Source: Candidatus Latescibacterota bacterium (GTDB lineage Bacteria > Latescibacterota > UBA2968 > UBA8231). Taken from it: DNA of 64,000 nucleotides. Both the position numbers and the translations under genes were made by a program. The number at the start of each line of letters is the position of its first letter. Position 1 is the first letter of the stretch. The DNA lies in contig CBDCXV010000010.1 of NCBI GenBank assembly GCA_965223905.1, forward strand, positions 768,001-832,000, given 5' to 3'. The notes beneath the pieces are model-generated. The model saw only the letters and a program-made list of their open reading frames with translations. It was not told the origin of the DNA and made no database searches. Shown piece after piece: positions 42,871-62,985 of the stretch.

Positions 42871-42950
42871 TCGGGCAGGGCTGTGGCCCCTCGCTTCGGC
42901 CACATGTGGCCGGTCGCTTTTCCTGATGGCGCAAAAAAAATTGGAGACAG

Positions 42951-43853: not shown

Positions 43854-43855
43854 GG

Positions 43856-44038
43856 TCAGATGTAGTAGATCGGGACCTGCGGGTCCTCCGCCGGCAGCTC
43901 CGGGGCCTTGAATTGCCGGCGGTTGCGGAACCGCCGGGTGGCCGTGAAGCCCCAGGCGACCAGGGCTCCCCAGACAGCAGGGGCGACGACCGCGGCCGCC
44001 ACCAGAACCGCGTCCGGAACCCCTGCCAGGGCGCTCAC
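43856..44038 (-). CDS. 60-aa single-TM membrane protein, copy 1
   Basis: GGAGG RBS + GTG; TM helix, basic stretch, ends PIYYI; differences from copy 2 are mostly synonymous. Confidence 0.65.
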   Translation of the reverse strand: MSALAGVPDAVLVAAAVVAPAVWGALVAWGFTATRRFRNRRQFKAPELPAEDPQVPIYYI

Positions 44039-44054
44039 TCCGCATCCTCCCCGG
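43860..44054. repeat. 195-bp direct repeat, left flank of the defence island
   Basis: Matches 62990-63184 with 6 mismatches (manual comparison). Confidence 0.95.
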
Positions 44055-46940: not shown

Positions 46941-47561
46941 TCAATTCTGGTTCCCCAGGGATTCCAACCGAGTCATCCAGTCGCTGAAGCGGGGGCACTC
47001 AGCGCGAATCACCGGCAAGCCTGTCTCCTTTGCCAGAAGAGGGCCGTCAACGCGCTTGTTATACCTCGGGATGATTGCCTTGATACGCTTGCTCGGTGCG
47101 GTGTCAATGTTGTCGTTGATGTCCTCGGGAGTCGGAAAATTGGAGCGTATTGTCCGTAGCGCCTGTATGGACTCATGCGATACACCGATCAACTTTTCAA
47201 AGTTATTCACATCAGCAAACAGCAAGCCCTCGAATTCGTACTGTTGGACGTAGGGAATGACATGCAATTCATTCCAAGAACGGTTCACCTTTTTGTTAAC
47301 CGTTTTGCGTATGAGCTGCTCCAACTGTTCAGGAGTTGCAGTGTTCTTGTCACAAAAGCCGTAAAAGTCCACCAACGAAGTCACGCGGTCGAAGTTCCAA
47401 ATCAATTTCGCCAAGTCCGAGGCCAGCCGCTCTATCGTTACGTTGCCATTGAGTAAGATGGGTTGTGGCTCCACGCCTCTTGCCCGCAGATGGTCGGCAA
47501 GAAGGTTGTTGACAAATTCCTCTTCGGTTCGGCCCTCCACCGATATGGCCAGTCGGATCAC
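46941..47561 (-). CDS. DUF4276 family (TOPRIM-like) protein
   Basis: VEGRTEEEFV, LVDFYG, YEFEGLLF, PEDIND...PSKRI, ECPRF..W; GTGA overlap with the AAA gene. Confidence 0.85.
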   Translation of the reverse strand: MIRLAISVEGRTEEEFVNNLLADHLRARGVEPQPILLNGNVTIERLASDLAKLIWNFDRVTSLVDFYGFCDKNTATPEQLEQLIRKTVNKKVNRSWNELHVIPYVQQYEFEGLLFADVNNFEKLIGVSHESIQALRTIRSNFPTPEDINDNIDTAPSKRIKAIIPRYNKRVDGPLLAKETGLPVIRAECPRFSDWMTRLESLGNQN

Positions 47562-48688
47562 GGGCGTCCTCCGAGCAGATTCTTTTGCCAAAGTTCTCCA
47601 GGTTTGAAGTTGTCGTCGAGCCATGCTTGATAGTCCACCGGATTCAGTTTTCGGAATTCCGTACAACCCTCCAGCAGATCTAGCACGAATATTTCATCGA
47701 GGCCAAAGGCATCAACCAACAAGGGCGACTGAGTTGCTATAATTATCTGCCTTTCCTCGGCGAGGGCCTTTACCATGCCCCCAATCAAGGCGATGGCTGC
47801 CGGATGCAAGCCCAGTTCCGGTTCGTCTAACAAGATTACGTCGGGCAACATCTCCGAGGGCAAATTGAGCAGTGTCACCAAGGCGAAAAAGCGGAGGGAG
47901 CCATCGGACGTGAGGTGGGCGCCAATGGTCTTGTCCGTTCCCTTTGCCTTCCACCTTAGCAAAACTTTTTCGTATCTCTCCTCGATTTGAAAGCAGTCGA
48001 AGACTGGCAAGACTCGACCGATATGCTCGCAGATCAACTCAAACCGCTTGATGTCTTCCTGCTCCAACCGGTACAGCACGGCCGCTAGATTGCCGCCTTG
48101 AGCGCGCAGGTAGCCGTTATCGTCTGCTTCCCATCCCTTTTTTAAATCCGATGTATCCGAGGTGTCGTGGAATTGATAGGCGGCACAATTTCGGAGCAAA
48201 TTCACAATCACCTTGGCGGTTCTAGCATTGACATCCTGAGATACCCCGGATTGAGCTGCCTGAACAATCTCGGCTTCCTGATGCCCACTTCCCAGGTATT
48301 GCCACCGTGCTTTCGTCGGAAAATCGCTGCGGTTGAATCGAAAGCTTTCCTCGCTGAAGAAGAAGCGGTCTGGATGAGCGTGGGAAAGTATGAACCGATA
48401 GTCGTTACTGCCCTCATCGGTACGTAATGTGATTTCCGCCTCTATTCGTGGAGTACGTCGGTTGCCGCCGAACAACTGATCGTCGGCTCCTCCTTGCCTC
48501 TCGACGAACTCGGCAAGTCGCCGGGCCCCGACCATCCAGCTCAGCATCTCGAAGAAGCGAATGAAATTGGACTTGCCCGAGCCGTTGGCGCCAATCAGTA
48601 CCGCCGCCCTGGGGATTTCCAGAAGCTCGACATTCGCCAACGACCGGAAGCCCCGAATACGGATATGGTCTAAGACTGTTTTACTCAT
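47558..48688 (-). CDS. AAA_21/ABC-type ATPase
   Basis: GANGSGKSN, SDGSLRF, LLDEPELGLHP, ATQSP, LWQKNLLGGRP. Confidence 0.88.
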   Translation of the reverse strand: MSKTVLDHIRIRGFRSLANVELLEIPRAAVLIGANGSGKSNFIRFFEMLSWMVGARRLAEFVERQGGADDQLFGGNRRTPRIEAEITLRTDEGSNDYRFILSHAHPDRFFFSEESFRFNRSDFPTKARWQYLGSGHQEAEIVQAAQSGVSQDVNARTAKVIVNLLRNCAAYQFHDTSDTSDLKKGWEADDNGYLRAQGGNLAAVLYRLEQEDIKRFELICEHIGRVLPVFDCFQIEERYEKVLLRWKAKGTDKTIGAHLTSDGSLRFFALVTLLNLPSEMLPDVILLDEPELGLHPAAIALIGGMVKALAEERQIIIATQSPLLVDAFGLDEIFVLDLLEGCTEFRKLNPVDYQAWLDDNFKPGELWQKNLLGGRP

Positions 48689-48731
48689 CGAAATGGTCTC
48701 CCATCTTTACTCATCGAAATGGTCTCCCATC
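48680..48731. repeat. Perfect 2 x 26-bp tandem duplication covering the RBS and start codon of the AAA gene
   Basis: TTTACTCATCGAAATGGTCTCCCATC at 48680-48705 and 48706-48731. Confidence 0.95.
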
Positions 48732-48812
48732 GCGGTGACCGGCACATCAGGCCGGTGGGTATGCAACACAGCTCGTCCGGGCGGAAGGAGATTCCATGCC
48801 AAAGCCCCAGCG

Positions 48813-50495
48813 CTACGCCTCCTCCTCCGTTGGATTGAGCGACTCCGCGATGCGGTCGAGTTTTTCGAGAATCTCCGGGTGGATCTCCTCCGCCATCATC
48901 TCCGCGGCCAACAGGTACAGATCCTTCTTCGGTGTGCCCCTTTCGAGATCCTCCAGCAGCGGAACGAGAAACTCCGTGCTTGCCTTGACGCGTACGAGCG
49001 ATACGTGATCCCCGAAGAGATCGGTCCCCCGGGGCACCTGCGCCCAGAAAGCCTCCTCGATTTGAGATTCGCTCAAGGGAAAATCGACGAATCGCTTGAT
49101 CGCCTCCGGCTGCAGGAGGTAGTTCTCGATCTCGTATCGGCGCCAGCGCAGCACAGCGAGCCCAGCTCCGGTGGTCTCCTCATCCGGCTCGTCTCGATTG
49201 TCTCCATCGAGAAGGCAAAGGCCGCGCAACCCCGGAAATGCCGAACGCATGGCAAAAAAATGTGCCTTCGCTTCCTGCAGGCTCCTGCCGCCGAGCCAGT
49301 GGACAAAGGGACGATCAAAAAAATGTCGCGCAGGATGCTCGAGGATTCCGACCCACTCTTTCAGTATACGCTCGTCCGTCTCGCTCTCGACGTAGAGCAC
49401 CGACCCGGCCTCCCGAGCAAGCAGCAGATCAGTGGTAGTTACTCGCTTGAGCGCTTCGCGTAGCTGGTCGCGCTCGGTCTCGCTCACCAAGGCGCGGAGG
49501 ACTTCCCCGAAAAGGCCGATCACCCGCGCCGGCTCGGTCGCATCGAGAACGACCTCGGAGTGCGTCGCTGCAATCACCTGCCCCCCACGCTCCCGGCCGA
49601 CCTTTCGGACCAAGTCGTACACCTGCTTTTGCAGAATGACGTGTTGGTGCGCGTCCGGCTCGTCGAGGAGGATTACCGTGGCGGGCCTTGCGTACAGGAA
49701 GCCGAAAAGGAGGAGCACCTGGAGGGTCCCGCTCCCTGCATTGGAAAGGTCGAGCGGCCGGGAGCGGCCCGGTTCCCGGTACTCGCATACGATATACGGC
49801 TGGGCCGGCGAGTACGAAGGCTTGAGCAACTCTATCCGAAAGAGGTCCCGGATGTGCCGCGCCAGCGACTGCCAACCCTCTTCACTCTCGCTCTCGGCAA
49901 TCTCCAGCAGGAGATTGCGCAGAATCTCGCCGGGCCGTCCCTGGCCGACGAGCAGATCTTGCATCCCCCGGTCGCGTCGCGGCTCGTCGCGCTCGATTCC
50001 CGAAAGCGGTGGGACATGGACGATGTTCAGCTGCCGAGCTTCTTGGGGCGGGAAATTCCGCAAGGACTCGCGGTCCAGGCTCTTTGCGTCGAAGGGCCGC
50101 GCGTACGCCAGCTCGGGATTGGCATACTGAAGCTCGATTCCGCACGTCCAGGTCTCCTCGTCCGCTTGTCCTTCTACGACGATCTCGATCAGCCGCCGCG
50201 TCCCGGACATGCCGCGGGGACCTGTGACCTTCCGGTCCTCCCAAAGGAGATTCATCTCCCTTAGCGGGACCGCGGTGATGTCGGGGCGCGGGATGGCGAC
50301 ACCTGAACGCTCTACCGCCCTTCCGCCTTCGCGTTGGGCAACCCATCGATCGAGCACGAACTTCCAGAGTACAATCGCCTGGAGCAACGTGGATTTCCCG
50401 GCGTTGTTCGGCCCGGCGAGGACGACCGAGTCCGCCAACTCGAACGCCTGGTCGCGGAACCGCTTGAAGTTCCTGATTTCTACGCGTCTGATCAC
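48813..50495 (-). CDS. ABC/AAA ATPase fused to a TOPRIM-like domain (OLD/PARIS-like architecture)
   Basis: GPNNAGKST, GSG signature, LLDEPDAH, ATHS; C-terminal YVESETD, LLDGD, RYEIENYLL. Confidence 0.8.
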   Translation of the reverse strand: MIRRVEIRNFKRFRDQAFELADSVVLAGPNNAGKSTLLQAIVLWKFVLDRWVAQREGGRAVERSGVAIPRPDITAVPLREMNLLWEDRKVTGPRGMSGTRRLIEIVVEGQADEETWTCGIELQYANPELAYARPFDAKSLDRESLRNFPPQEARQLNIVHVPPLSGIERDEPRRDRGMQDLLVGQGRPGEILRNLLLEIAESESEEGWQSLARHIRDLFRIELLKPSYSPAQPYIVCEYREPGRSRPLDLSNAGSGTLQVLLLFGFLYARPATVILLDEPDAHQHVILQKQVYDLVRKVGRERGGQVIAATHSEVVLDATEPARVIGLFGEVLRALVSETERDQLREALKRVTTTDLLLAREAGSVLYVESETDERILKEWVGILEHPARHFFDRPFVHWLGGRSLQEAKAHFFAMRSAFPGLRGLCLLDGDNRDEPDEETTGAGLAVLRWRRYEIENYLLQPEAIKRFVDFPLSESQIEEAFWAQVPRGTDLFGDHVSLVRVKASTEFLVPLLEDLERGTPKKDLYLLAAEMMAEEIHPEILEKLDRIAESLNPTEEEA

Positions 50496-50497
50496 GG

Positions 50498-53461
50498 TTA
50501 CCGCGGCACCGCCAGCAGCATGGCGTCGAGGAGCCGCTTCTCTTCGCAGCCGCGCGGGTAGAGGGCGGAAAGCGCGTTGGCGAGCCGCAGGAAGCCGGGG
50601 CCGCGCTCCTGCTCGCCGCCGATCAGCGACCGCAGGGCGTTTGCGTGGCCGCTGGACTGGAGCAGCATGGCCTGGTGAATGCGGTCGAGGGTGGTGTCGC
50701 CGGACCCTTCCTCCCCGGCTCCGTATTCGGGCCTCCTCTCCCTCACCAAAAGAGCCGCGTCTTCCGCCCGGTCGGAGAATAGCTCCTGCTGTAGCGGCTC
50801 CCTGCGACCAGCGGACTCCTCCAGCCTCGTGGCGCCGGACGCAGCCCCCTCTTCACCGAAGAGCTTCCTGGCACGTTCCGAAACCGGCAGCAGGCGCACG
50901 ACGCCCTTTTCCTGGCCGATAATGCGGTCGGTCCAGGAGTCGAGGTCGATGCCCATGGGCTGGGCGAAGCGGCGCACCACGTCGAAGGGGAGAGAAAACC
51001 CGGCTGATGCTACCTTGGCGACGGCTTCTTCGTCTGCCTCCTCGTCTTGTTCCTGATTATCTGCAACAGGGGTTGTGCTCTGGAGCGTCCACAGGAAGAG
51101 CGCAGTCAGGCGGGCGTCCTCTTCCAGGGCGCCGGACAGGCCGTTGCGCGCTTGTGCCTCCGCGGTTCCGAGCACCTGTTGCAGCGCCGCACGGCCGACC
51201 ACTTCCCAGACCTTCTCCAGGTACTCGGGGAGGCCGACCGTATGGCCCTCGGCAGTTTCGACGGCGCGGTAGCGGCTGAAGATTTCGAGTGCGGGGCCGA
51301 TGCAGGCGAAGACCAGATCGGCGCCTCGGATGCCTTCGGTCTGCAAGCGCTCGATCCAGTCAGCGACGCGGATCGGCAGTTCGCGCAGGACATCGGCCCA
51401 GTCGCCGATGGGGGCGTCTTCGGGACGTGGGCGGCAGATGAGGTGGACGCTGGTGGTGAGTGCAGCGGAATCGCGGGCGCGCAGGCGCGACGCCATTTCG
51501 GTAGCGATTGGCCAGGAGCCGGTGATGGTCCAGCCGCCGCGAATCATGCCCGAAAGCAGTGCCTCCCAGCCCTCGGTGGTTTTGTGAGCGAAGACCACTG
51601 AGCCGACGCCGTCTTCGCTTAGAATGCGGCGGCCCTCGGTGAAGGCTTTCGCCATGCCATCCTCGAAGAACTGCTTGTCTTTGTGACCGTAGCGATCACG
51701 ATCCCAATGCGCCATCTCGCATAGCTCTGGTCCTTTGGGTGTCAGCGAGTTCTCTGGAAAGCGAGAATTGAGCAGCAGCAAATGTTTAGGAAGGGTTCGT
51801 TTCAGCCAGACATAGAAGAAGTCAGAGAGGTCGGCGTAGGGTACCGCAAAGTAGTAGGGCGGATCGGTGAACCAGACCCCGGCGGTCTGGTCGGGGAGCG
51901 GATGGTCGGTAGCGTCGGCTGATTGGGTCTGACCGGTTGTAGCAAGAGCGCCTTGCAGTTGTAGACACTCGACTGTCTTTGCGCCCCACTCGACGGCGGC
52001 TACGTAATTGCCGGAAGAATCACACCACGGATTCACCTCCGTGTAATCCCAGATCATGGGCAGTGCTTGCCTGCCGTAGGTGTGATTTACTTTCTCGCCT
52101 GTCAAATGCCAAGAGCACAGAGCTGACCAGTAGTCGGTGGATCGGTCCAAAGCTATTGCGAGAAGGTCCCGAAGTGGCACGTTGGTACTTCCCTTGCTTC
52201 GTGTCAGCGCGCCTAGCTCCAATAGTGCCACCTTCTGCCGTGCTGTGAACAAGTCGCCCCATGTGTTCATACCGTACAGCGGTACATTGAAAGTGCCGCT
52301 CATCAGGGGCAACGGCTCATCCGGCACCGGGCAAAGCCCCTGTTTCCCGCCCCGCTCCCATTCATCCAAGACCAGCGCCACTCGCTCCTGAGCCTTTCGC
52401 ACCGCCTCGTAGTCCGCGTCCCTCGGCAGCCGATAGTGCCGCCCCGCCCTCCCAGGCTTGAGCGTCACCACCGCGGTCATCCGCGCCCCGCCCGTCCGCC
52501 GCCCCTCCGCATCGAAAATCACATCCGCGCCGCCGCGCTCGGCCGCAAGCTGCGCCCGCACCCGCTCCGGCGGCAGCACCGCGCCGCAGCACAGACAGGT
52601 CGCCCGCGCTCGCGTCACCGTGCCGCCGTACACCTCTTTTTCCACCTGCGGCTCGAATACCTCAAACTCGACGCCCGGTGGCTCTACCTCGCTGCGCTCG
52701 ACTCGATGCCGCAACGCCCGCTTGCGCTTGGCCTTCTTGCACAGCCAGAACGAACGCATCAGCGGAATCTCCGCGCCGCAGTTGGGCGCTTCGCAGCGCA
52801 CCGTGCGCGCCCACAAATAGGCAATCGGCGTCGCCCCGTCCGGGTCCTTGGGATACAGATCCGCCAACTCCTGCTCCGCCTGCCGCTTGATCTCGTCGCC
52901 GACCCGGCGCAACTCCTCAGCCAGCCCCGACCCGTGCCGCGGAATGTCCTCCAGCATCACTTTGAGAATCAGGCACGCCACCGGATTCAGGTCGCTGGCG
53001 AACGCCTCGCAGCCCAGCCGCAACGCCTCCAGCGGAATCGAGCCCCCGCCCGCAAACGGGTCCACCACGAGGGGCGGTTCTTCGCCATGGGCCGCCTTCA
53101 CCAGGTTGCGCCCCACCCGCAGATAGACCGGATGCGCCGACATGTCCCAGTTAGCGAAGTTGGCGATGAACCAGAGCAACGCCTTGCGCAGGTCTGCGTC
53201 ATCAACCGGCGGCTGGCGCACTTCCCGCAGGATCTCCCGTGCCTGCCGCTTGAATCCCTCCGGGCATTCCGGATCGCAAGGATCCGGCAGCAACAGCGCC
53301 ATCAACACCGCCCGCGACGAAGCCAACGGCCGCCGCGCCCACCACAGGTGCAGCGTGCTCGGATGCCCGTGCCGAATCGACTTCTCCCTCGCCGCGTGCT
53401 TGGAAACCTCGGCAATTGGAAAATCAACTTCGGCGAGACGCTTGCATTCTCTGGGGATCAT
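50498..53461 (-). CDS. DUF1156 family amino-DNA methyltransferase with Zn ribbon
   Basis: LHLWWARRPL, motif I DPFAGGGSIP, CEAPNC/CLCC, motif IV TDPPY. Confidence 0.9.
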   Translation of the reverse strand: MIPRECKRLAEVDFPIAEVSKHAAREKSIRHGHPSTLHLWWARRPLASSRAVLMALLLPDPCDPECPEGFKRQAREILREVRQPPVDDADLRKALLWFIANFANWDMSAHPVYLRVGRNLVKAAHGEEPPLVVDPFAGGGSIPLEALRLGCEAFASDLNPVACLILKVMLEDIPRHGSGLAEELRRVGDEIKRQAEQELADLYPKDPDGATPIAYLWARTVRCEAPNCGAEIPLMRSFWLCKKAKRKRALRHRVERSEVEPPGVEFEVFEPQVEKEVYGGTVTRARATCLCCGAVLPPERVRAQLAAERGGADVIFDAEGRRTGGARMTAVVTLKPGRAGRHYRLPRDADYEAVRKAQERVALVLDEWERGGKQGLCPVPDEPLPLMSGTFNVPLYGMNTWGDLFTARQKVALLELGALTRSKGSTNVPLRDLLAIALDRSTDYWSALCSWHLTGEKVNHTYGRQALPMIWDYTEVNPWCDSSGNYVAAVEWGAKTVECLQLQGALATTGQTQSADATDHPLPDQTAGVWFTDPPYYFAVPYADLSDFFYVWLKRTLPKHLLLLNSRFPENSLTPKGPELCEMAHWDRDRYGHKDKQFFEDGMAKAFTEGRRILSEDGVGSVVFAHKTTEGWEALLSGMIRGGWTITGSWPIATEMASRLRARDSAALTTSVHLICRPRPEDAPIGDWADVLRELPIRVADWIERLQTEGIRGADLVFACIGPALEIFSRYRAVETAEGHTVGLPEYLEKVWEVVGRAALQQVLGTAEAQARNGLSGALEEDARLTALFLWTLQSTTPVADNQEQDEEADEEAVAKVASAGFSLPFDVVRRFAQPMGIDLDSWTDRIIGQEKGVVRLLPVSERARKLFGEEGAASGATRLEESAGRREPLQQELFSDRAEDAALLVRERRPEYGAGEEGSGDTTLDRIHQAMLLQSSGHANALRSLIGGEQERGPGFLRLANALSALYPRGCEEKRLLDAMLLAVPR

Positions 53462-53600
53462 AGTATGCGTTCCTCGGCCCATTGGACGAGCGCTTTGAGA
53501 ATCTCGATGGGTTCCCGGTATCCCCGCTCGTATTCCGAAGTGTAGTCCTTGGAACTCCAAGGGATCCAGTTCCTCAATGCGACTGATTTTTCTTTCTCGT
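53458..53600 (-). pseudogene. 3' remnant of a former gene coupled to the methylase start
   Basis: Protein-like tail (...GYREPIEILKALVQWAEERIL*) whose TGA overlaps the methylase ATG (ATGA); no start of its own. Confidence 0.4.
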
Positions 53601-53611: not shown

Positions 53612-55918
53612 CTACGAGGCGACATGGTCATGTTCTCCCAAGTAGAGGATGTCGCACCGGATCTCCAACCGCTTCCGCTCGCTGGCTTCCGGCTGGAAGT
53701 CGTTCGCGATTTCATTCGGGACCGGAATGAAGGTTCGATCTTTCGCGAGAATAGTCGAGGTGATCCTAGGCCCACCTCCGGACGCAGAACCAACAAGTCC
53801 AGGACAAAGGATGTCGTAGTAAAGGCCGAAGCGTCTTGAGTGATGCTGGAATATGAAAATGACTTTTCGGCCACCCCAGACCACTTCCGTTGAATGCGGC
53901 TGAAGAAAGAAGTCACCCTTTTCGCGTTGAACTCGGTCACTTAACGAGAGAAAGCAGGTATATCCGTTGACCGGTTTCTCGCCCGTTAGAATACGCGCGC
54001 TCGTCTCCTTCTCCCGACGGTCAATTCCGGGTCTAGCATCAAAGAGGTCTTGAAGGTCTTCTTCAGTAGTCTCTTCTCTAATCTCACTGACAACCGAAGA
54101 AAGTGGTTCCGTGCTCGCACCGCTCACATCAAGGACTGAACGATCCCTATCGATCAGCCGTCGTGCCGCTTCGACATTCGTTAGTCGTCCGGCACGCAAT
54201 TCCTCGAAAATCTCGTCGAGATCGGCTTTGTCATCGAGCTCATATTCAAACAGTTCTCTGTTAGAACGAAGATGCATCAAGAATGCCTCGGCCCCTTCTC
54301 GTGTCCTGCTAGGTACGAGCTTCGCAATTCTTGGAAAGACCACAGATCGAACGAAGTCCTTTACGAAGGGGGCAAACGCGTTGTAGTCATCGCGATAAAG
54401 AACGAGCAATGGAGCGACGCTTGAAGAATCGGGGTCGAGGTAGATTATCACTGGCACTTTGGTATCAGTTATGAGAAGCGGTAGCCCGCCAGAGATGGTC
54501 CCGAAACGGATGTCGACTCCAAGGAAGTAGTCCTCTTCAAGGATCAGGGCCACACGAGTCGCGAGAGCCGAGTGAGCGAAACTCTGACTCGACATCGGGA
54601 GCTCCTGCTTCACCCGAGGGGTAATATCGACCTCTTTGACTCCTTGCGTAGTTAGGTAGCCAAACTCGCAGTTGCGCCGAGGTCCCCGTCGGGAAAGCAC
54701 AATAAGAGGTTCATCCTCGCTAGCGTATGTCTGGATTACCGATTCATCATGCCCACTGTAGTACCGAACACCACTGCGTTTTACTAGCGAAGAGAGTACT
54801 TCGAGTTTTCCGGAAGGTCTGGGTACTACCTCCAGCTTGCCGCAGAGTGCGAACTGTCCTGTTGCGGTAATCCATTGGAGAAAACCATCGTTTGCGAAGG
54901 ATTCGTCATGCTTGGCAGCAAGTGGAGAAATCAGGTTGTCTAGTGCCCAAATAATTTGCTGTAGAAGTTGATTTGAAGAAGCGTCCAGGGCTTCACGGCC
55001 TGCTGTGGGCTTCAGGATCGAGAGATCAACCACCCCGCCCCACTGGTACCCAGACTGCATTGCGACTGTCGAAAGACCGAATCCAGAACGAAGTGTGCGG
55101 ATAGCATTGCGGGCTTGCAGCAAGACGATTGTACCGGGCTTTCCGTGCCCAGTCGCCGACCGGACCTTCTTTAGAACGATGCGGAGTTCGCCCGAAGCCA
55201 TCCCAAGAAGCTCCAGGTCACCGGAAACGATTCCTGCAAGCGATATTCCTTGGCGGTGTTCAGCCCAGGCGTGCCGTCCGGAAGGAAGCGCGGTCCTATG
55301 GCTAGCACCACTGATCATATCGCCGTTGAAAAAGACCGGAATGTCAACGAACTCGACGAACTCGTGCAAATACGCACGCGCTTCCTGAACGGATACCCCA
55401 CTTGTGCGGGAAAAGTGAGCTCGCACTATGGTACCTGGTTCGCCCTTTTGGGGGATTGGTTTGACCGAGATACTCTGTGTTTCCGTTGAAAGTTCTGACT
55501 TCAGCACCGACGACAACGTACGTTCGCCTGTTACCGCCGACTCACTCTCAACCAAAAGTTCATCGGCGACGCCGAAGTTTGCCATCGCCCCGATCCCGAA
55601 CGTGCCCACCACCCCAGCCGCCCGAGCAGCGTCGGTGTTCTTGCCGCTCTTCCCCGCATACCAAAAGTTAGTTTCGATTTCTTTTGGGGTCATCCCGATG
55701 CCGTTATCAGACACGATGATCTGTTCATCATCGACGGTTACTCCGATCCTAGATTCAAACTCATCGCCATGCGCCTCTCTCATGCGGATTGCATCGAATG
55801 CGTTCTGCGTGTTCTCTCGAAGGAGAGCCAGTGGCGACTGGTAAATCTGATCGGCAAGCAATTCAAGAATCCGGGAGAATTCGACCTTGAAGGCGATTCT
55901 CTTCTCAGTTGAATTCAT
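53612..55918 (-). CDS. Hsp90-like (GHKL) ATPase with a long uncharacterised C-terminal region
   Basis: FKVEFSRILELLADQIY, LRENTQNAFDA, DNGIGMT, GKSGK, GTFGIG; lower GC. Confidence 0.85.
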   Translation of the reverse strand: MNSTEKRIAFKVEFSRILELLADQIYQSPLALLRENTQNAFDAIRMREAHGDEFESRIGVTVDDEQIIVSDNGIGMTPKEIETNFWYAGKSGKNTDAARAAGVVGTFGIGAMANFGVADELLVESESAVTGERTLSSVLKSELSTETQSISVKPIPQKGEPGTIVRAHFSRTSGVSVQEARAYLHEFVEFVDIPVFFNGDMISGASHRTALPSGRHAWAEHRQGISLAGIVSGDLELLGMASGELRIVLKKVRSATGHGKPGTIVLLQARNAIRTLRSGFGLSTVAMQSGYQWGGVVDLSILKPTAGREALDASSNQLLQQIIWALDNLISPLAAKHDESFANDGFLQWITATGQFALCGKLEVVPRPSGKLEVLSSLVKRSGVRYYSGHDESVIQTYASEDEPLIVLSRRGPRRNCEFGYLTTQGVKEVDITPRVKQELPMSSQSFAHSALATRVALILEEDYFLGVDIRFGTISGGLPLLITDTKVPVIIYLDPDSSSVAPLLVLYRDDYNAFAPFVKDFVRSVVFPRIAKLVPSRTREGAEAFLMHLRSNRELFEYELDDKADLDEIFEELRAGRLTNVEAARRLIDRDRSVLDVSGASTEPLSSVVSEIREETTEEDLQDLFDARPGIDRREKETSARILTGEKPVNGYTCFLSLSDRVQREKGDFFLQPHSTEVVWGGRKVIFIFQHHSRRFGLYYDILCPGLVGSASGGGPRITSTILAKDRTFIPVPNEIANDFQPEASERKRLEIRCDILYLGEHDHVAS

Positions 55919-57339
55919 GAGATCATCTTTCTAGCGGTAATTGTGGCAGTCAACTCTTCAAACAGAGCACGGTCAACGATTGCCGACGCAGCATTAAGGC
56001 GTACCGCAGCTTGGTCGAATCGACGAGCGTCCAAGAGCAGCGAGGTGACCTTAACAACCTCGTCGACGCTTTGGGGTGGGTCGAGAAGTTTGATCAATTC
56101 CTCCTGCCGTCCCAAACCCTCCAAGGCCCTGATCTTGATCTGGCGTTTTTCATGTGAATGGGACGTGTTAATCTCAGCGAGAAGTTCCAATGCTCTCTCG
56201 TATTGTTCGGTGGCTACCGCCGTCATCGCGTCATCGAGTCGTTGAGTGGGGGTAGGTGGTTTAGGACGTGAAGGCGAAAGTGGGAGGTTTAGCTTGATGA
56301 AGGTCTTACCGCCGAAGTCGTCCCGATGGGCGCCGGTGAAGACGCCCCCTGATGACATCGCTCGTACATGAACGGTGACTGAGTCGCTGTTTGGATCGAT
56401 GACGACGATGTTGAATTGGCGTCGCTCTCCCGTGGGGAGTTCACGGTCGCCCACTGCAATGGATCCCGCACCTACGACTGCCATCGAGGTCAGGTTCGGC
56501 AGACGGAGTTCAAAGGGTGCTGCACCAGGATAATGCTGATGTCCGTGCAGTCCGACGCTGAATCCGAAATCGATAAGTTTGTGGATGACACGTTGGTCCA
56601 TATAATCGTTTACTCGTGGTCCGCCGACAACGCTGTGGTGCCAAACGGCAACGGCAATCGGGGCATTCGAGCCCACAAGTAGTTCCCGCGATGAGGATAG
56701 TGATGCTGAGTCGATCTCCCCCACGTGGCAAAAGCAGTCATTCCCGTGCCAAGAGGCGAATCCCACAATAACGAGACCGAGAGACGGATACTCGAAAAAA
56801 ACGAGGTCACTACCACTATGCGACAATGGACTTGGATCTAACCCTGCATAGAAGTCTGCTCGAAATCGTCGGAAGTGTTTGAGGCGAGATTCATACAGAT
56901 CGCTGTCGCGGATCTCGTAGGCTTTCTGCTCCTTCCAGTTCCAGCGCACCCTTGAATTGGCCTCAAAGGCCTTCCTTGCGATCCCGTCTGGACCCGTTGC
57001 GAGAGGTTTCATCGCGTTTCGGGCGCGGCCCCAGTGAACATCGTGGTTTCCAGGGATGATTACGACGCGCGACAGATCGGCATCGACAAACTCGGCTGCC
57101 AGCCGCTGTAAGAAATCGGAGGTCTCAGAGTATTGGGCTGCGATCTCGGAGTCGGCATTGGGAGTGTCGATACATGCGCCTTGAACTAGGTCACCGCTCA
57201 CCACGACTAGGTCTGGACTCGGGATCCCTTCTCTGTTCCACCGCCATGCGTCGCTCGCGATTGCCGCGAGAAGCTCATTGTTGCTTAAACGAGGCCCCGA
57301 CGTTCGGTGTAGGTCAGAGACGTGAAGGAGAGTAGGCAT
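55915..57339 (-). CDS. Calcineurin-like metallophosphoesterase with a helical (TPR-like) C-terminus
   Basis: HVSDLH, SGDL, PGNHD, WHH, LHGHQH; ATGA overlap with the Hsp90-like gene. Confidence 0.88.
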   Translation of the reverse strand: MPTLLHVSDLHRTSGPRLSNNELLAAIASDAWRWNREGIPSPDLVVVSGDLVQGACIDTPNADSEIAAQYSETSDFLQRLAAEFVDADLSRVVIIPGNHDVHWGRARNAMKPLATGPDGIARKAFEANSRVRWNWKEQKAYEIRDSDLYESRLKHFRRFRADFYAGLDPSPLSHSGSDLVFFEYPSLGLVIVGFASWHGNDCFCHVGEIDSASLSSSRELLVGSNAPIAVAVWHHSVVGGPRVNDYMDQRVIHKLIDFGFSVGLHGHQHYPGAAPFELRLPNLTSMAVVGAGSIAVGDRELPTGERRQFNIVVIDPNSDSVTVHVRAMSSGGVFTGAHRDDFGGKTFIKLNLPLSPSRPKPPTPTQRLDDAMTAVATEQYERALELLAEINTSHSHEKRQIKIRALEGLGRQEELIKLLDPPQSVDEVVKVTSLLLDARRFDQAAVRLNAASAIVDRALFEELTATITARKMIS

Positions 57340-57452
57340 TAATTACGCCTCGCAGGGATTCCGCGTGTAAGCAGATGCTGCATCAGTCCGATCTTTGATA
57401 TGCTGTTGGTTGACGATCAAAGTTTCCGTCTCCTACCGCTAGGTCTCCAGTA

Positions 57453-57479
57453 GCGATGACCTCACCCATAGGTCATCGC
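57453..57479. terminator. 10-bp perfect hairpin between cargo modules
   Basis: GCGATGACCT-CACCCAT-AGGTCATCGC; no clear U-tract. Confidence 0.35.
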
Positions 57480-57490
57480 GCAGAAAGCGC

Positions 57491-58327
57491 TCAGGCGATT
57501 TCCTCAACCCAGTCCCCCTCCTTCCACAGTCGAACCGTGAATCCGTTCTCCTCCTCGATCAGATCGGGCTCGGTCCCGTTGTGGGCGAGCATTCCGGGAA
57601 TAATCTTTTTCCGCACGCCCATGCCGCTGGGATCGACGTATCCATAATCGCGCATCACGTTTACCAGCGTCTGGTTGCGCGCGTAGCGCGCGCCGGAGGC
57701 AATTTTCTCAGGGGTCAGCATATGGGGCAGGTTCCCGGGACTTACGATTTCCAGGCGATTCGTGAAGATGGCCAACATAACCTCCGCACCTGCGATGCCG
57801 TAGTCGCGGTGGACGAGGGCGTTCCCCACGGCTTCCCTGATCACGCTCTCGGGATATTCCAGGACATCGGTTTTCCCGGCGCCTTCCAAGCCCGCCGTCG
57901 TCGTATTTCGCCGCACGAAATCCCAAGCCTGATCGACCAGCCCTGACTCAATCAGGGAACCGTCTCGAGCGCGCAGTGGAACCAGAGGTCCTCTCAAGTC
58001 CTCATCGGCAAGGATAGTATTCGGGTTCTCGCCGGAATAGCAGATGGCCCGGATGCCTGATTGAGGAAGGAACCGCTTGGGATTCTTCCCGAACAGCAGC
58101 ATCCCGTCCATGGTTACGGCCGTCCACTCCGGGGAGATCGCGGCCAGTCTCAGGTTCAAGACCCACTCCTCGACCTGGTTATCTCCTGGAACATCGCCAC
58201 CCAAGACGCTAACGAAGTAGTCCCGCAGGCGGCCCAGGTCGAGGGTGTCGATGCCGGCGCCCGGCACCGGATTCAGGGGGTATTGTAACTGTCGCGACGC
58301 TTGGTACATCTCCGCCGCCTTAGTCAC
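57491..58327 (-). pseudogene. RecG-C/HATPase_c_4-type ATP-binding protein lacking its usual N-terminal AlbA_2 (Schlafen) domain
   Basis: YPESVIREAVGNALVHRDY, RLEIVSPG, ARNQTLVNVMRDYGYV..SGMG; begins in what looks like the interdomain linker. Confidence 0.65.
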
Positions 58328-59447
58328 CGCGGTATTCCGGGCGGGTTTTCGGCATTACGGCATCGGCAAGCGGGAGACCGCCCTCCAGCAGATCGCGGAG
58401 TTCCTGGAAGGATGCAGCCGGCAATACATCGGCGCCTTCTGTTTTGGGAATGATCAGCAGCGTCTCGTCGAGCCCGATTCCCTCGTCCTTCAACAAGTCG
58501 GGTGAGTGGGTGCTCAGGAAGATCTGTCTCCCGGTTTTCCTCTGAACCCGGGCCAGCATCTGCGGCAACGCCCGGACGATTTCCGGATGGAGCGAGAGTT
58601 CAGGCTCTTCGAGGAGCAGGGGCCCATCCTTTTCCATGGTCGACCAGAGGAGCCCCATGAGCCGCAACGTCCCGTCGGAGAATTGCTCTTCCGTCTGCCA
58701 GGCCCCCTGTGGGCGCCAGTGTTGGTATTTACCCCGCAGGTGAGGTGTGCCGCGTGCATCGCGCCACAGATCGATTTCTTCGAGCTGCGGAACGGCGATC
58801 CTGAGGGCTTTCTGTATGCGCCTCAGCCGGGCATTGCGGGTCCGCTCCTGGGTTTTTGTTACCTGTTCGAGGAAATCCCCCCCGAAAGGATCGTTGGTTC
58901 GCCCGACAGAACGATCCGGTTCGCGCACAAGCTGTGGGACAAGGTGCAGGTAGCGGATGGATGTGAAGAACTCTGCCAGGGAGCGAAATGGCTTGTTGAC
59001 GTTTACCTGCTCGAGGTGGGTTTGCCTCAACCGCACCCGATCATCCTCGTCGTCACTGTCGGGGCGGTCGACCAGCTTTTTTTCATCCTGCAGCACACGC
59101 TCCATGTGGAGCAACGGCCGGCGCTGATTGTCCTGGGAAAAGGCGAGCTCATACCTCCACCGAGCCCCTTCGGTTCCTTCCTGCAATTCGACATGGACTT
59201 CGATGTCCGGATTCCGGCGGGCGGCCAGGCACCGGATGGCACTGACCCCACCGCGCCGTCGGACCGCCTCCTGAAAGCCGCCACCTGTAGATGCGAGATC
59301 ACCCAGAAACCGGAAGACGTCGAGGAAGTTGGATTTACCCGATGCGTTGGGCCCTACGAGAAACACGCGGTCCTCTAGGGCGACCTCGATGTCGGCGAAG
59401 TTTTTCCAATTGCGCAGGCGCAGTCTCCGGATCTTCAGGTCACTCAT
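58320..59447 (-). CDS. AAA_21/RecF-like ATPase (C-terminus possibly clipped)
   Basis: LRNWKNF, GPNASGKSN, FSDGTLRL, LLEEPELSLHP, STHS. Confidence 0.85.
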   Translation of the reverse strand: MSDLKIRRLRLRNWKNFADIEVALEDRVFLVGPNASGKSNFLDVFRFLGDLASTGGGFQEAVRRRGGVSAIRCLAARRNPDIEVHVELQEGTEGARWRYELAFSQDNQRRPLLHMERVLQDEKKLVDRPDSDDEDDRVRLRQTHLEQVNVNKPFRSLAEFFTSIRYLHLVPQLVREPDRSVGRTNDPFGGDFLEQVTKTQERTRNARLRRIQKALRIAVPQLEEIDLWRDARGTPHLRGKYQHWRPQGAWQTEEQFSDGTLRLMGLLWSTMEKDGPLLLEEPELSLHPEIVRALPQMLARVQRKTGRQIFLSTHSPDLLKDEGIGLDETLLIIPKTEGADVLPAASFQELRDLLEGGLPLADAVMPKTRPEYRGD

Positions 59448-59451: not shown

Positions 59452-62400
59452 TCATCTCACTTTGGATTTGTCCCGAACCTCCATCGGCTGCTTCAGGGCA
59501 TTCACGCTCAGGTAGTAGTGTTCCACCTTGGTAAACTCCCGCCAAGGGAAGCGCGCTGGATCACCTATCGGCTTCTGAAGCTCAGGTGCGCTGGCGCAGT
59601 TGGTCACCACGTAGAGCCAGTAACAGTCGCGCCGGTCCTCCGCGACGCGGCGCTCGTTCGGCGTCAGCAGGATACTTCCGGCGGCGCCGGCGAGACCCTT
59701 CACCTCGATGAGGCGCAGCTCCCCGGACTGTAGATCGAGGCTGGTCAGGTCGTACCCGAGGTCCTTCTCATGGACGTCCACTACCTGGCGTCCCTTCGCG
59801 GTCTCGTGTTCCATGACCACCTGCATCGCCGTCATTTCGGTTTCGGGATGCGGACGCAGGCCCCGGACGTCCAGGGTGTCGCTTTCGGGATGGGGAAGAA
59901 CGAGGGCGCTGGCGAGCCGCTCTACTCCCTGAAGGGTCACGGCTCGCTGCCGCTTGAGCTCCTCGCGCCGTCGCTCGCGACGCTCCCGCACCTCCGCATG
60001 GCGGTTCTCGGCCTGCGCCAGACGCCCTTCGGCCCCGGTTACTCCCTCGTCCACCTCTTCATCAGCCCGGCCGATCTCGTCGTCCGCCCGTTGCAGCACC
60101 TCCTTCAGCGACATTTCGACGTGCTCGGCAATGCGGTCGACCTCGGCAAACCGCTCGTTGCGCACCTCGTCGATGAACGGGATCAGGGCTTGTTCGTTCA
60201 GCCAGGCGGTAGCTTCCGGAAGCGAGGACGCAGCCGGCAGGAAATCCGGCGCCGCGGTGGGAGTCAGGTTGCCGAGGATATCCGGCTCGCGAAGACAGGG
60301 TGAGGCCCCATCCGTCAGCTCCACGGTGAACAGCCGTTCGTGGATGATCTGTCCGAGACCGTCGACGACCTTCGCTCTGTAGAAGTCGAGGCGGGCGGGA
60401 GTTTCGTGGGCTAGTGAACGGAAGCATGCCCCACGGGCACAGGCGTCTCGGCCGAGATCGAGGCTGTGGCGGCGCAGGGCTTCGAACAGCGGATGTCCGG
60501 GGGTCACCCATTCGAGGTGGTGCTCCTCCGCGGTGTCCCGGTCCGTCGAAAGGCGCGGATAGCGAACCGCAAGCTCCGGGAGCTTCCAGTCCGGCATGCG
60601 CTCGTATTTTTTCAACCCGGGCGGCACGCGAGCCGGGTCGAACGTATGCGCCAGGTTTCTCACCGGTTTCAGGACCAAGCCCGAAAACTGCGCGCATTCC
60701 TTGATGAACCGCGCGATGGTCTCGGGAACCAGGCGCCTTTCCTGGGCCCGGGCGCGGCGCTCGATGAGCATGTCGAGATTGAGCTTCTTGGCGGCCAATC
60801 CCTCCAGCGCCGTCTGGCAGATATTCCGGAAATGACCCTCGTCCACGTCCCTCAGGAGCCGGTCTTCGAAGTCTTCCTCCCCAAGCCTGCCGGCGTAGAA
60901 GTCGCGCAGCACGCGCTCCACGTGCGCGGACGGCAGGATCTCGCCCACGACGTTGAATACCGCGTCGTCATCGAGGGCGTCGCGGATCTCCTGGAGCTTG
61001 TCCAACAGCCGCTGCAGGACCCGTCCCTCGATGGTGTTGGTGGCGACGAAATTGAAGATCAGGCAGTCTAGCCGCTGTCCGTACCGGTGGATGCGCCCCA
61101 TCCGCTGTTCGAGGCGGTTCGGGTTCCAGGGGATGTCGTAGTTGAAGAGAATGTGGCAGCACTGGAGGTTGATTCCTTCTCCGGCCGCCTCGGTAGCGAC
61201 CAGGACCTGTATCTCCCCTTCGCGGAACTGCTGCTCGGTGTAGAGCCGGGTTCCCGGTTCGTCGCGGGAGCCGGGTTTCATGGCCCCGTGGATGCAGCCG
61301 ACGCGGAAGCCCCAGGCTTTCAGCTGTTCCATCAGGTGGTCGAGGGTGTCCTTGAACTCGGTGAACAGCAGCAGCCGCTGGTCGGGCCGGTCGAAGAACC
61401 CCTCCTCCTGCATGATCCGCCGAAGATGTCGGAGCTTCGCCTGGCTGCCCGGGCCTTCGACTGCTTTCGCCTCCCCGGCAAGCTCCAGCAGCTCGGCGAT
61501 CTCTTCCCGCACCTGCCCGGCGTTGCCGGCCAGGGTGATCGCTTCCAGCATCCTTTCCAGGCGCTCGCGCTCCGCGTCCTCGAACTCCTCGAGCTCTTCC
61601 AGACCGGGAAGATCAGGGGGCGCGGTTCGAACCACTTCCTGGGCCCGGCTTAGGCCCTCCTCCAGGCGCTTTGCCCGGTTCTCCAGCGAACGACGCATGG
61701 CGTAGGTGCTGGAGGCGAGACGCCTCTGGTACAGGGACATCAGGAAACCGACGGCTCGCGCCCGCGGGTCGTCATCTTGGGCCGCGGCTCGGGTGCATTG
61801 CCGCTTTACGAAGCGGGTGACTGCCTGGTACAGGTCGAACTCGGGGCCATCGATGGCGAAGTCGGCGGTACGTGGGATGCGCTTGGTGAAGACCGGCTTG
61901 GCAATCCAGGTTCCGTCCTCATGGCGCTCCGGGAAATAGACCATCGCCTCCTTGGTGCGCCGCAGGTAGAAGGGGGCGCGCCTCTTGTCCATGGCATCGC
62001 GGATCGAGCTTACGTCGGCGTAGGCGTCCCGGTCGAGAAGCTGCAGGAAGAGGCTGAAATTCTGTGGGTCCCCCTTGTGCGGAGTGGCGGTCAGCAGCAG
62101 CACGTTTTCGGCGCTGTCGCGCAGCAGTTCCCCCAGCCGGTACCGCTGGCTCTTGTGCGTCTCGTCGCGCGCCGACATGCGGTGCGCCTCGTCGACGATC
62201 ACCAGATCCCAACGCACCTGAGCCAGTCCGGGAAGGATCTCGGTGCGCTTGGCGAGGTCGAGGGAGGTGATGATCTGCTTCTGCTCCATCCACTGGTTGA
62301 CGCCGAACTGATCGCGGATGTCGCTGCCTTTCAGCACCAGGAACTTCTCCTCGAACTTCTCCTTGAGCTCGCGCTGCCATTGGAACGTCAGGTTCGCGGG

Positions 62401-62898
62401 GCAGACGACGAGAACCCGTTCGATAAGGCCACGAAGCTTGAGTTCGCGAATCAGGAGACCGGCCATGATGGTCTTGCCTGCTCCTGCGTCGTCGGCGAGC
62501 AGGAAGCGCACGCTTGGCAATTTGAGGAAGTGATCGTAGACGGCTTCGAGCTGGTGCGGCAGGGGGTCCACCCGCGAAATGGACAACCCGAAATAAGGGT
62601 CGAATTCGTAGGCGATGCCGAGCGCGTAGGCCTGAAGGCCGAGACGCAGAAGCCGTCCGTCGCCGTCGAAGGAAAGAGCGGAATCGGCGATGGTCAGGTC
62701 GGCAATGTCATCCGCCGTAAGGGTGACCTGACGAAACTGCTCCGACTGCTGGCCGACGAGTCCTGCGACCCAGATTCCGGGACCATTCGAGCCAACGGTA
62801 ACCACTCGCATAGGCTCGCTGAACAGCGAGCCGGACAGGATCTGTCCTTCCCGGATGGCGGTCTCAGCACTCAACGGGATACTCCTGTTTCCAGCCAT
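59452..62898 (-). CDS. SNF2-family helicase with a C-terminal DUF3883 (PD-(D/E)XK) nuclease domain
   Basis: PLPHQLEAV, LLADDAGAGKT, DEAH, TATP, EAAGEGINLQ, QRMGRIHRYGQ; C-terminal GYDLTS...IEVKG. Confidence 0.9.
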   Translation of the reverse strand: MAGNRSIPLSAETAIREGQILSGSLFSEPMRVVTVGSNGPGIWVAGLVGQQSEQFRQVTLTADDIADLTIADSALSFDGDGRLLRLGLQAYALGIAYEFDPYFGLSISRVDPLPHQLEAVYDHFLKLPSVRFLLADDAGAGKTIMAGLLIRELKLRGLIERVLVVCPANLTFQWQRELKEKFEEKFLVLKGSDIRDQFGVNQWMEQKQIITSLDLAKRTEILPGLAQVRWDLVIVDEAHRMSARDETHKSQRYRLGELLRDSAENVLLLTATPHKGDPQNFSLFLQLLDRDAYADVSSIRDAMDKRRAPFYLRRTKEAMVYFPERHEDGTWIAKPVFTKRIPRTADFAIDGPEFDLYQAVTRFVKRQCTRAAAQDDDPRARAVGFLMSLYQRRLASSTYAMRRSLENRAKRLEEGLSRAQEVVRTAPPDLPGLEELEEFEDAERERLERMLEAITLAGNAGQVREEIAELLELAGEAKAVEGPGSQAKLRHLRRIMQEEGFFDRPDQRLLLFTEFKDTLDHLMEQLKAWGFRVGCIHGAMKPGSRDEPGTRLYTEQQFREGEIQVLVATEAAGEGINLQCCHILFNYDIPWNPNRLEQRMGRIHRYGQRLDCLIFNFVATNTIEGRVLQRLLDKLQEIRDALDDDAVFNVVGEILPSAHVERVLRDFYAGRLGEEDFEDRLLRDVDEGHFRNICQTALEGLAAKKLNLDMLIERRARAQERRLVPETIARFIKECAQFSGLVLKPVRNLAHTFDPARVPPGLKKYERMPDWKLPELAVRYPRLSTDRDTAEEHHLEWVTPGHPLFEALRRHSLDLGRDACARGACFRSLAHETPARLDFYRAKVVDGLGQIIHERLFTVELTDGASPCLREPDILGNLTPTAAPDFLPAASSLPEATAWLNEQALIPFIDEVRNERFAEVDRIAEHVEMSLKEVLQRADDEIGRADEEVDEGVTGAEGRLAQAENRHAEVRERRERRREELKRQRAVTLQGVERLASALVLPHPESDTLDVRGLRPHPETEMTAMQVVMEHETAKGRQVVDVHEKDLGYDLTSLDLQSGELRLIEVKGLAGAAGSILLTPNERRVAEDRRDCYWLYVVTNCASAPELQKPIGDPARFPWREFTKVEHYYLSVNALKQPMEVRDKSKVR

Positions 62899-62985
62899 TA
62901 TCAATTTCTTTGCCCTTCTGGCATGGCTTGCTTGATCCCATTCAGGAGTGCCGAATCGCTCCCAGTACCTGCGGAGGAGGAGATC

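Follow-up and report, generated by a model that had tools for sequence, protein, structure and literature searches.

The subject of this analysis is a pair of coupled genes in a 64,000-nucleotide stretch of DNA from a Candidatus Latescibacterota bacterium (assembly GCA_965223905.1, contig CBDCXV010000010.1, positions 768,001 to 832,000 of the forward strand), which we call the window. Both genes are on the minus strand. The upstream one, P0001, is encoded at 55915..57339 as an open reading frame (ORF) of 474 aa with an ATG start and a Pfam match to Metallophos (E = 4.1e-13), and it is a metallophosphoesterase (MPE) that we predict to be an effector. The downstream one, P0002, occupies 53612..55918, also starts with ATG, and encodes a 768-aa Hsp90-like GHKL ATPase (HATPase_c_3, E = 3.3e-7), the predicted switch or sensor. 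The 2 genes overlap by 4 nt, with the MPE stop inside the ATPase start ATGA, as was already recognised in a first-pass annotation made from the sequence alone. They are genuine genes that did not arise as ORFs by chance, since relatives of full length extend down to 28% identity, with 160 cluster representatives at E ≤ 1e-30. With moderate confidence, we read the pair as a self-contained mobile two-gene conflict module directed against phages or mobile elements and riding as cargo in an Hma (helicase-methylase-ATPase defence) system, in which the ATPase would be the switch and the MPE a nucleotide-degrading effector.

The pair has a GC content of 53.9%, against 64.5% for the window, and its third-position GC is 56-58% against 76-80% in HmaA, HmaB, and HmaC. 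The lower GC and a separate upstream intergenic region had both been noted at first reading, and both hold. By sequence reading, that intergenic region is 151 nt long (57340..57490, minus strand), and in it two 9-bp arms around a 9-nt loop form a perfect inverted repeat (57453-57479), located just past the stop of the preceding HATPase_c_4 gene and some 115 nt ahead of the MPE start; the repeat has no T-run and could be either a terminator-like hairpin or an operator. A scan of 53300-57700 gave no sigma-70 consensus promoters and a single terminator-like site, inside the MPE gene, both counts being lower than in shuffled sequences. Insertion-marking direct or inverted repeats were not found flanking the pair.

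The AlphaFold 2 (AF2) model of P0001 has a predicted local distance difference test (pLDDT) score of 92.4, and MPE folds match it at Z 20-27; together with the invariant ligands given below, this places it in the MPE fold class with a complete dinuclear metal site. The catalytic domain covers approximately residues 1-350 (56290..57339, minus strand), as delimited by VIA-align matches and an NCBIfam DS9_1 match at E = 2.8e-10. Its metal ligands D9, H11, D50, N98, H99, H234, H235, H267, and H269 are invariant among 53 relatives (alignment A2), which bears out the earlier claim of a phosphoesterase with all its metal-binding motifs followed by a helical tail. A Pro-rich linker (352-363) leads into that tail, which runs over about residues 364-473 as 7 helices in the AF2 model with pLDDT mostly above 90; taken as residues 364-474 (55918..56250, minus strand), it is a possible docking domain. 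The tail is the least conserved part of the protein, at 25% identity versus 41% for the core, and by itself it has no Pfam match.

The best VIA-align fold match of residues 1-360 is Bacillus subtilis YydB (chain B of PDB ID: 9a6c, YydD-YydB), with Z = 27.4 over 297 residues of the MPE domain, although at only 12% identity and with 9a6c being an integrative model, not a solved structure. The YydB partner YydD is not known to be Hsp90-like, and no functional description of YydB was found among the literature search listings. The cyclic-nucleotide phosphodiesterase Rv0805 follows at Z = 22.4 with 26% identity, and further fold neighbours are Lmo2642 and, at Z 21-22, GpdQ and SMPDL3A. Going by the model, the closest folds of the MPE are nucleotide and phosphodiester hydrolases. 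In profile searches, NCBIfam DS9_1_antiphage is the best match for all 53 aligned MPEs (best E = 2.3e-16), and DS8_antiphage is matched by 43 of the 53 (best E = 1.8e-34). By analogy with the DS-9-type PUA-Cal-HAD module, compared below, and with the fold neighbours, the substrate would most likely be free nucleotides.

The leading alternative retains the defence module but makes the MPE an Mre11/SbcD-like nuclease acting on phage or host DNA or RNA, loaded or licensed by the Hsp90-like ATPase. Mre11/SbcD nucleases, which act together with an ATPase, belong to the MPE superfamily, and Mre11 structures can be aligned to the MPE domain at Z = 18. PADLOC reports an 'Effector/Endonuclease' match at 0.0046, and there are weak matches to SbcD and to the DNA polymerase II small subunit. 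When the A2 profile was run against PDB sequences, its only match was likewise to a DNA polymerase II small subunit (E = 0.0015). GHKL ATPases that control nucleases are also validated in defence, in VcSduA (PMC12137116) and Tiamat (10.64898/2026.09.30.754977). But the small-molecule phosphodiesterases YydB, Rv0805, GpdQ, and SMPDL3A outscore Mre11, the best family matches go to DS-9A and DS-8, the SbcD score is 12.5 bits against an NCBIfam subfamily cut-off of 77.65, the partner is a GHKL ATPase and not one of the SMC/ABC type, and Pfam detects no DNA-binding domain in P0001. Hence, we consider the nuclease version quite unlikely and continue to prefer a nucleotide-degrading effector.

The AF2 model of P0002 has a pLDDT of 86.2. 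NCBIfam matches it as 'HSP90 family protein' (E = 2.6e-26) over residues 5-200 only, and the best Foldseek matches are TRAP1, HtpG, GRP94, and Hsp90 at E ~ 1e-20. With VIA-align, residues 11-540 align with approximately residues 19-675 of full-length Hsp90/TRAP1 chains at Z 22-24, so that this region models as the full Hsp90 layout of N, middle, and C domains. From the Foldseek and VIA-align matches we accordingly map an Hsp90-type N-terminal ATPase, middle domain, and C-terminal-like domain to residues 1-540 (54299..55918, minus strand). The first-pass annotation had left about 500 aa of C-terminus unrecognised; most of that is occupied by the Hsp90 middle and C domains, and what stays unassigned is about 540-768. 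Residues E35, N39, D42, D71, G73, G75, and R308 are invariant among 48 relatives (alignment A1), and we take E35 to be the catalytic Glu of Hsp90, N39 its Mg-binding Asn, D71-G73-G75 the DxGxG motif, and R308 the middle-domain Arg. Judged by these residues and the metal ligands, MPE and ATPase both look catalytically active. We tried P0002 as the housekeeping HtpG and rejected it, with 61.4 bits against an NCBIfam equivalog cut-off of 371 and a match over residues 8-225 only.

Beyond the Hsp90 layout, P0002 has a low-confidence linker (537-625) and then an extra beta-rich C-terminal domain, residues 626-768 (53615..54043, minus strand), delimited from the pLDDT and secondary structure of the model. 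At 35% identity it ranks second in conservation among the regions compared, and W681, Y700/Y701, and P732 are among its invariant residues. Searching for what it might be gave little: the A3 profile against PDB sequences found nothing below E = 0.69, the best score of an Atlas feature search with residues 600-768 was 0.76, which is below a useful level, and the only Pfam match to the domain was DUF7527 at 0.046. For the more distant relatives P0233, P0235, P0246, P0251, and P0255, the alignment is confined to the first ~330-540 residues, possibly a sign that their C-termini differ.

Whether homologues of the 2 genes occur together had been put forward with the first-pass annotation as a check, and the answer is clear. 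One scan of species-representative genomes produced 14 loci, in Chloroflexota, Acidobacteriota, Actinomycetota, and Gemmatimonadota, with ATPases 66-78% identical, and every one of the 14 has sequence homologous to the MPE immediately upstream of the ATPase. A metagenome scan with alignment A1, which holds 48 diverse P0002 relatives, gave at least 409 stretches confirmed by tblastn, and 80 of these, at 33-50% identity, make up our metagenome sample. Upstream sequence of 1500 nt or more is available for 58 of them, and in 58 of 58 an MPE homologue is directly upstream on the same strand; the end of an MPE is visible in 13 of the 22 with less. When the ORFs flanking the ATPase are clustered over the 80 loci, only 2 families recur, the ATPase (73 loci) and the MPE (60 loci); no third conserved gene accompanies them, the next family being present in 4 loci. 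The pairwise identities of MPE and ATPase correlate with r = 0.915, a value reached by 0 of 999 permutations (46 loci), and this sequence correlation shows co-inheritance of the 2 proteins, not contact between them. In 48 of 60 loci the genes could overlap by 4 nt, a generous count as the start was taken nearest the stop. The two genes are a co-inherited unit, in a family that is widespread and unnamed, annotated merely as 'metallophosphoesterase' and 'ATP-binding protein'.

A single in-frame form was seen, the database protein P0199, in which the C-half of the MPE and its tail are in frame with the ATPase; a search for fused relatives of at least 1345 aa found none, which is weak evidence. 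The source genome itself contains a second MPE + Hsp90-like pair, 30% identical, on another contig (contig C9, locus L019 5583-9606, minus strand; MPE 593 aa, ATPase 749 aa), and its MPE tail has weak matches to TPR_19 and TPR_14. A NOV_C/Mrr-like nuclease gene is encoded about 2 kb from this second pair (contig C9, 11820-13310, plus strand).

Around the pair in the window, the gene on the helicase side is HmaA, an SNF2 helicase with a NOV_C nuclease domain (59452..62904; PADLOC HmaA 6e-168; Pfam SNF2-rel_dom, Helicase_C, and NOV_C), and the methylase is HmaB, a DUF1156 DNA methylase (50498..53560; PADLOC HmaB 7.7e-123; Pfam DUF1156), after which comes the HmaC ATPase (44129..46903; PADLOC HmaC 2.3e-95), all 3 on the minus strand. 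With HmaA as the 'helicase', HmaB as the 'methylase', and HmaC after them, the locus is an Hma defence system with nested genes, and the pair is therefore embedded cargo. The insertion between a helicase and a methylase had been seen at first reading, and the slot is indeed the one between HmaA and HmaB, but the helicase is not adjacent: a HEC-01A-like ABC ATPase (58320..59447, minus strand; PADLOC HEC-01A 1.2e-160) and a HATPase_c_4 protein (57491..58327, minus strand; HATPase_c_4 1.1e-19, pAgo-associated models 5.5e-13, pAgo being prokaryotic Argonaute) intervene. Embedded genes are reported in 931 of 1,485 Hma systems (62.7%), and 7 of 9 embedded candidates that were tested protected against phages (Payne et al. 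2024, 10.1101/2024.01.29.577857). The main text of that paper contains none of the terms phosphoesterase, Hsp90, HATPase, or GHKL.

The same Hma system can be followed in 2 related genomes, one of the same genus (G002) and one of the same family (G012). HmaA is 97% identical in G002 and 84% in G012, HmaB is 82% and 73% identical, and HmaC is 93-98% identical in G002. In the slot before HmaB, G002 has a HEC-05-like gene and an uncharacterised 424-aa gene in place of the pair, and G012 has PDC-S02, an NsnB/HEC-03B-like ATPase, a methylase, a PD-T4-6/mad6-like kinase, and a CARF-like protein. Comparison of these loci supports the cargo reading of the pair. A P0002 homologue at E ≤ 1e-30 was found in 0 of 60 relatives (2 of the same genus, 34 of the same family, and 24 of the same class). 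With differing cargo in one slot of one Hma scaffold, the 3 related genomes amount to a clean natural experiment for 'guilt-by-embedding'.

The neighbours of the pair elsewhere were surveyed with PADLOC, at the genome loci within four ORFs of it (102 of 108 scanned, E ≤ 1e-20) and also at the metagenome loci (150 of 224 scanned, E ≤ 1e-15). PADLOC matches are found among the neighbours at 9 of 14 genome loci, including type II, IIG, and III restriction-modification, a CBASS cyclase with effector, an NsnB-like ATPase, PDC-S01, and PDC-M26A. Among the metagenome loci the figure is 17 of 41, with short pAgo accompanied by SIR2-APAZ, Shedu, PD-Lambda-1, PD-Lambda-2, QatC, DRT, SoFic, and PDC candidates. 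Pfam also finds integrases, serine recombinases, and transposases near the pair in genome loci. A defence-island setting, the second check put forward with the first-pass annotation, is thus seen in both samples, although in counts that have no background control. At the 14 genome loci, tblastn finds no HmaA, HmaB, or HmaC near the pair, save for a weak SNF2 match in L003, and the pair therefore does not depend on Hma. Hma-like genes do stand beside 2 metagenome relatives, as a helicase with an HmaB-like fragment in L020 and as DUF499 with DUF3780 in L023.

The pair is compositionally foreign and horizontally mobile. In the scan of species-representative genomes, the closest relatives of P0002 belong to other phyla, and full-length copies of the pair are carried on conjugative Pseudomonas aeruginosa megaplasmids beside ABC-three-component genes. 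On the P. aeruginosa plasmid pPUV-9 (L100), the 'ABC-three component system' genes and a DUF3732 protein are about 3 kb away from the pair (features at 1-2359 and 5535-9304), and an MvaT/MvaU silencer gene is near. Several copies are damaged. One of the Acidobacteriota loci (L008) has a Mutator-family transposase between the MPE and ATPase genes, L013 has its ATPase in 2 frames, L014 retains an MPE remnant and a broken ATPase, and in L009 the MPE was split in ORF calling; L007 ends at a contig end. In L008, 2 Mutator-family transposase copies (8536-9858 and 12495-13817) with identical Pfam statistics bracket the Hsp90-like gene, one of them being the copy that interrupts the pair. A serine recombinase close by is truncated. 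A maximum-likelihood tree of the 14 ATPases is poorly resolved because the paralogue outgroup is very long-branched, leaving 8 of 11 inner branches open; it does contain an Acidobacteriota + Gemmatimonadota sister pair at 100/100, which by sequence is a hint of cross-phylum sharing. In a phage collection, P0002 had partial GHKL N-terminal matches only, none covering at least 80% of the query.

Some further features of the window concern the remaining cargo. After the HEC-01A-like ATPase at 58320..59447, the next gene is the HATPase_c_4 protein instead of HEC-01B, the usual TOPRIM partner. In G002 and G012 a homologue of the HATPase_c_4 protein follows HmaA directly, with no HEC-01A (L110 9564-10384; L112 4442-4972), and for that reason it may belong to this Hma lineage, not to the HEC-01A cassette. 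Between HmaB and HmaC (46941..50495, minus strand) are encoded an AAA_21 ATPase, a HEC-01A, and a HEC-01B (DUF4276), the latter two with PADLOC matches of 2.5e-118 and 1.6e-59. By Pfam, the first of these is an AAA_21/AAA_15 ATPase of 560 aa (48813..50495, minus strand), and the HEC-01A + HEC-01B cassette has a low GC of 51-53%. As the HmaB-HmaC interval holds this ATPase and a low-GC cassette, there are at least 3 separate cargo units in one Hma system. Downstream of HmaC are 2 minus-strand ORFs with no Pfam matches (41941..42903 and 42963..44045). A RelA/SpoT-family (p)ppGpp synthetase/hydrolase gene is at 37410..39794, and the stretch after it is lower in GC (~56%) and encodes a DUF3800 protein at 40551..41390.

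A different explanation for a mobile pair is that it serves stress, signalling, or addiction and not defence, whether as an Hsp90 chaperone with a client phosphatase, as a chaperone-controlled cyclic-nucleotide phosphodiesterase, or as a toxin-antitoxin-like pair. Hsp90 paralogues may serve as housekeeping chaperones, enzymes like Rv0805 break down cAMP, some copies have housekeeping neighbours, and copies on plasmids and beside insertion sequence (IS) elements resemble addiction modules in this respect. However, P0002 does not approach the HtpG equivalog cut-off, the distribution is patchy, with no homologue in the 60 relatives and near-identical copies in different phyla, the cargo slot otherwise holds defence-like genes, and the nearest characterised MPE families are antiphage. 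We give such a module only a slim chance. That the pair belongs to the Hma system around it, as an added effector or regulator needing HmaA, HmaB, or HmaC, is very improbable and we reject it. Although it lies within the hma operon, on its strand, and the relatives L020 and L023 adjoin Hma-like genes, the pair recurs at 14 genome loci where tblastn finds no Hma genes apart from the weak SNF2 match, and among 80 loci with no third conserved gene, the orthologous Hma loci of 2 relatives are without it, its composition is unlike that of the Hma core genes, and its second copy in the same genome is outside any Hma system. The pair was likewise rejected as a core component of Hma, with no Hma model matching P0001 or P0002 and with those same orthologous loci lacking it.

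Returning to the pair as a defence module of switch and effector, co-inheritance, translational coupling, intact catalytic residues, the folds, foreign composition, and the cargo-slot and defence-rich contexts have all been computed here. The mechanism is inferred, from the binding of the MPE to the ATPase and its activation by ATP to the substrate, the trigger, and the phenotype of defence. The Hsp90-like portion of P0002, residues 1-540, would be an NTP-driven switch, probably dimeric like Hsp90. Either the extra domain at 626-768 or an Hsp90 client-binding surface would sense an infection cue, and an ATP-dependent conformational change would then be passed on to the MPE, supposedly held on the ATPase through its helical tail. 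The activated MPE would hydrolyse free nucleotides or dinucleotides (dNTP/NTP, that is, deoxynucleoside or nucleoside triphosphates, NAD+, or cyclic nucleotides) and stop phage replication, possibly at a cost to the cell. The first-pass annotation had supposed that the ATPase senses or chaperones and activates a nucleotide- or nucleic-acid-degrading effector, and the idea of an ATPase switch that turns on a phosphoesterase is consistent with the unit, its context and composition, and the lack of models for it. A complex prediction of full P0002 with the MPE tail (345-474), run with no controls, scored 0.00 against a mark of 0.32, and is neutral on binding.

Several observations weigh against the defence module with a nucleotide-degrading effector. 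A PADLOC match beside the pair is absent in 5 of 14 genome loci and in 24 of 41 metagenome loci, in the same uncontrolled counts as above, and genes of housekeeping type, such as gltX, rluD, and aroA, surround L009, L010, and L013. Embedding in Hma is a heuristic, as 2 of the 9 HEC candidates gave no protection (10.1101/2024.01.29.577857). Decayed or IS-interrupted copies, such as L008, L013, and L014, are common for accessory genes and are not specific to defence. P0001 scores 39.7 bits against a DS-9A equivalog cut-off of 420, and across the family all DS-9A and DS-8 scores fall far short of the full-length equivalog cut-offs; hence the matches show a related domain and do not establish a shared function or orthology. 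MPE folds also comprise nucleases, with Mre11 aligning at Z = 18, so that more than one class of substrate is conceivable. Lastly, the conservation of the extra domain of P0002 seems to fit a fixed sensor of a small molecule or of host state better than a variable sensor of phage proteins.

No model fitting P0001 or P0002 was found in PADLOC-DB v2.0.0 or NCBIfam 20.0. The best PADLOC matches are partial, to PDC-S60 (5.8e-6, residues 4-110) and REase_II (9.1e-6, residues 56-120). We considered the pair as one of HEC-01 to HEC-09 or as a PDC candidate and rejected both, there being no full-length model match and partial matches only, at ~1e-5. What the pair shares with the HEC and PDC candidates is being cargo nested between hma genes, and HEC-01 cassettes occur in the same Hma locus here.

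Among characterised systems, the closest MPE domain is that of DS-9 and PUA-Cal-HAD. DS-9A and DS-8 are described as validated antiphage metallophosphatase systems (DeWeirdt et al., PMC13092281), and the DS-9-type PUA-Cal-HAD module is reported to deplete dNTPs (10.64898/2026.01.15.699771). The metal ligands, reported as essential there, are invariant here. The DS-9-type module as described differs in having a fused PUA-like sensor that binds m6-dAMP and a HAD phosphatase as partner, with no Hsp90-like protein. DS-8 has a metallophosphatase effector coupled to an NTPase switch, and a fold similar to SMPDL3A, as does our model of P0001, but is described as a single polypeptide with a STAND/NACHT P-loop NTPase, not a GHKL/Hsp90 ATPase (PMC13092281). 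If the pair defends, it would add a second regulatory solution, beside the PUA and NACHT sensors, for calcineurin-like nucleotide-depleting effectors.

Other comparisons start from the ATPase. Tiamat has an N-terminal Hsp90-like GHKL ATPase that is reported as required for defence and as controlling the effector, but it is a single protein, with DUF3684 and a NOV_C PD-(D/E)xK nuclease as effector (10.64898/2026.09.30.754977). P0002 was tried as a Tiamat and rejected, with no NOV_C or DUF3684 by Pfam and no PADLOC Tiamat match at E ≤ 0.1. The same source places 'putative antiphage Hsp90-like proteins' in a clade apart from Tiamat, intermixed with Hsp90 (10.64898/2026.09.30.754977). In VcSduA, of the paraMORC-type GHKL-Shedu kind, a GHKL ATPase gates the effector and both sites are reported as needed for defence, but the ATPase is MORC-like, the effector is a fused DUF4263 nuclease, and a single gene encodes the whole (PMC12137116).

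A eukaryotic comparison is with Hsp90 and its phosphatase PP5. PP5 is a calcineurin-fold Ser/Thr phosphatase whose helical-repeat tetratricopeptide repeat (TPR) domain docks on Hsp90, where the phosphatase is activated. PDB ID: 8gae, of Hsp90-PP5, is among the structural matches of P0002. The TPR domain of PP5 is N-terminal, but the MPE tail here is C-terminal, and the likeness is drawn only as an analogy. A bolder version of our reading, which we put forward as speculative and unlikely, is that the pair is a bacterial immune counterpart of Hsp90-PP5: the MPE would be latent, docked by a TPR-like tail on a dimeric Hsp90-like clamp, the client cycle or the extra domain would detect a phage protein or metabolite, and ATP-driven closure would release destruction of the nucleotide pool. 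If true, this would be the first immune system shown to use the Hsp90 mechanism as its sensor, in a mobile cargo that moves in and out of Hma and other defence operons.

For the pair as a nucleotide-degrading defence module, the nearest precedent of all is a prediction. Later papers credit Nicastro et al. (NAR 2023) with a computational prediction of systems in which Hsp90-like NTPases are joined to 'conflict effectors' of the calcineurin-like (Calcineurin-CE) or HD (HD-CE) type, proteins that the citing text calls 'putative', and Hsp90-like NTPases have been proposed to replace STAND NTPases in 'tripartite' effector-switch-sensor immune systems (10.64898/2026.10.19.760177). A published experimental test of an MPE + Hsp90-like pair was not found in the literature searched; if the pair defends, it would be the first experimentally accessible Hsp90-type ATPase switch of a prokaryotic immune system. 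The first-pass annotation had offered the pair as a candidate new system and had proposed a PADLOC search as support, and the lack of a fitting model did come out, but the kind had already been predicted in 2023, so that the claim to novelty is weaker than first put forward. As for defence, that reading is plausible and gains strength from our findings. The pair resembles the 2023 kind, as the citing text gives it, in that its central switch is an ATPase of the Hsp90 type and its effector is calcineurin-like, and in the extra C-terminal domain and the conflict context, and the genetic coupling is provided here by an operon with a 4-nt overlap. It differs in that the effector is an N-terminal fusion there and a separate coupled gene with its own helical tail here, and in that the C-terminal domains are 'rapidly evolving, modular' there and conserved within the family here. 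Since the citing text describes fusions, the pair is a split form. Hence, we expect that it is probably an unnamed, split two-gene member of this computationally predicted kind, and a probable anti-phage module.

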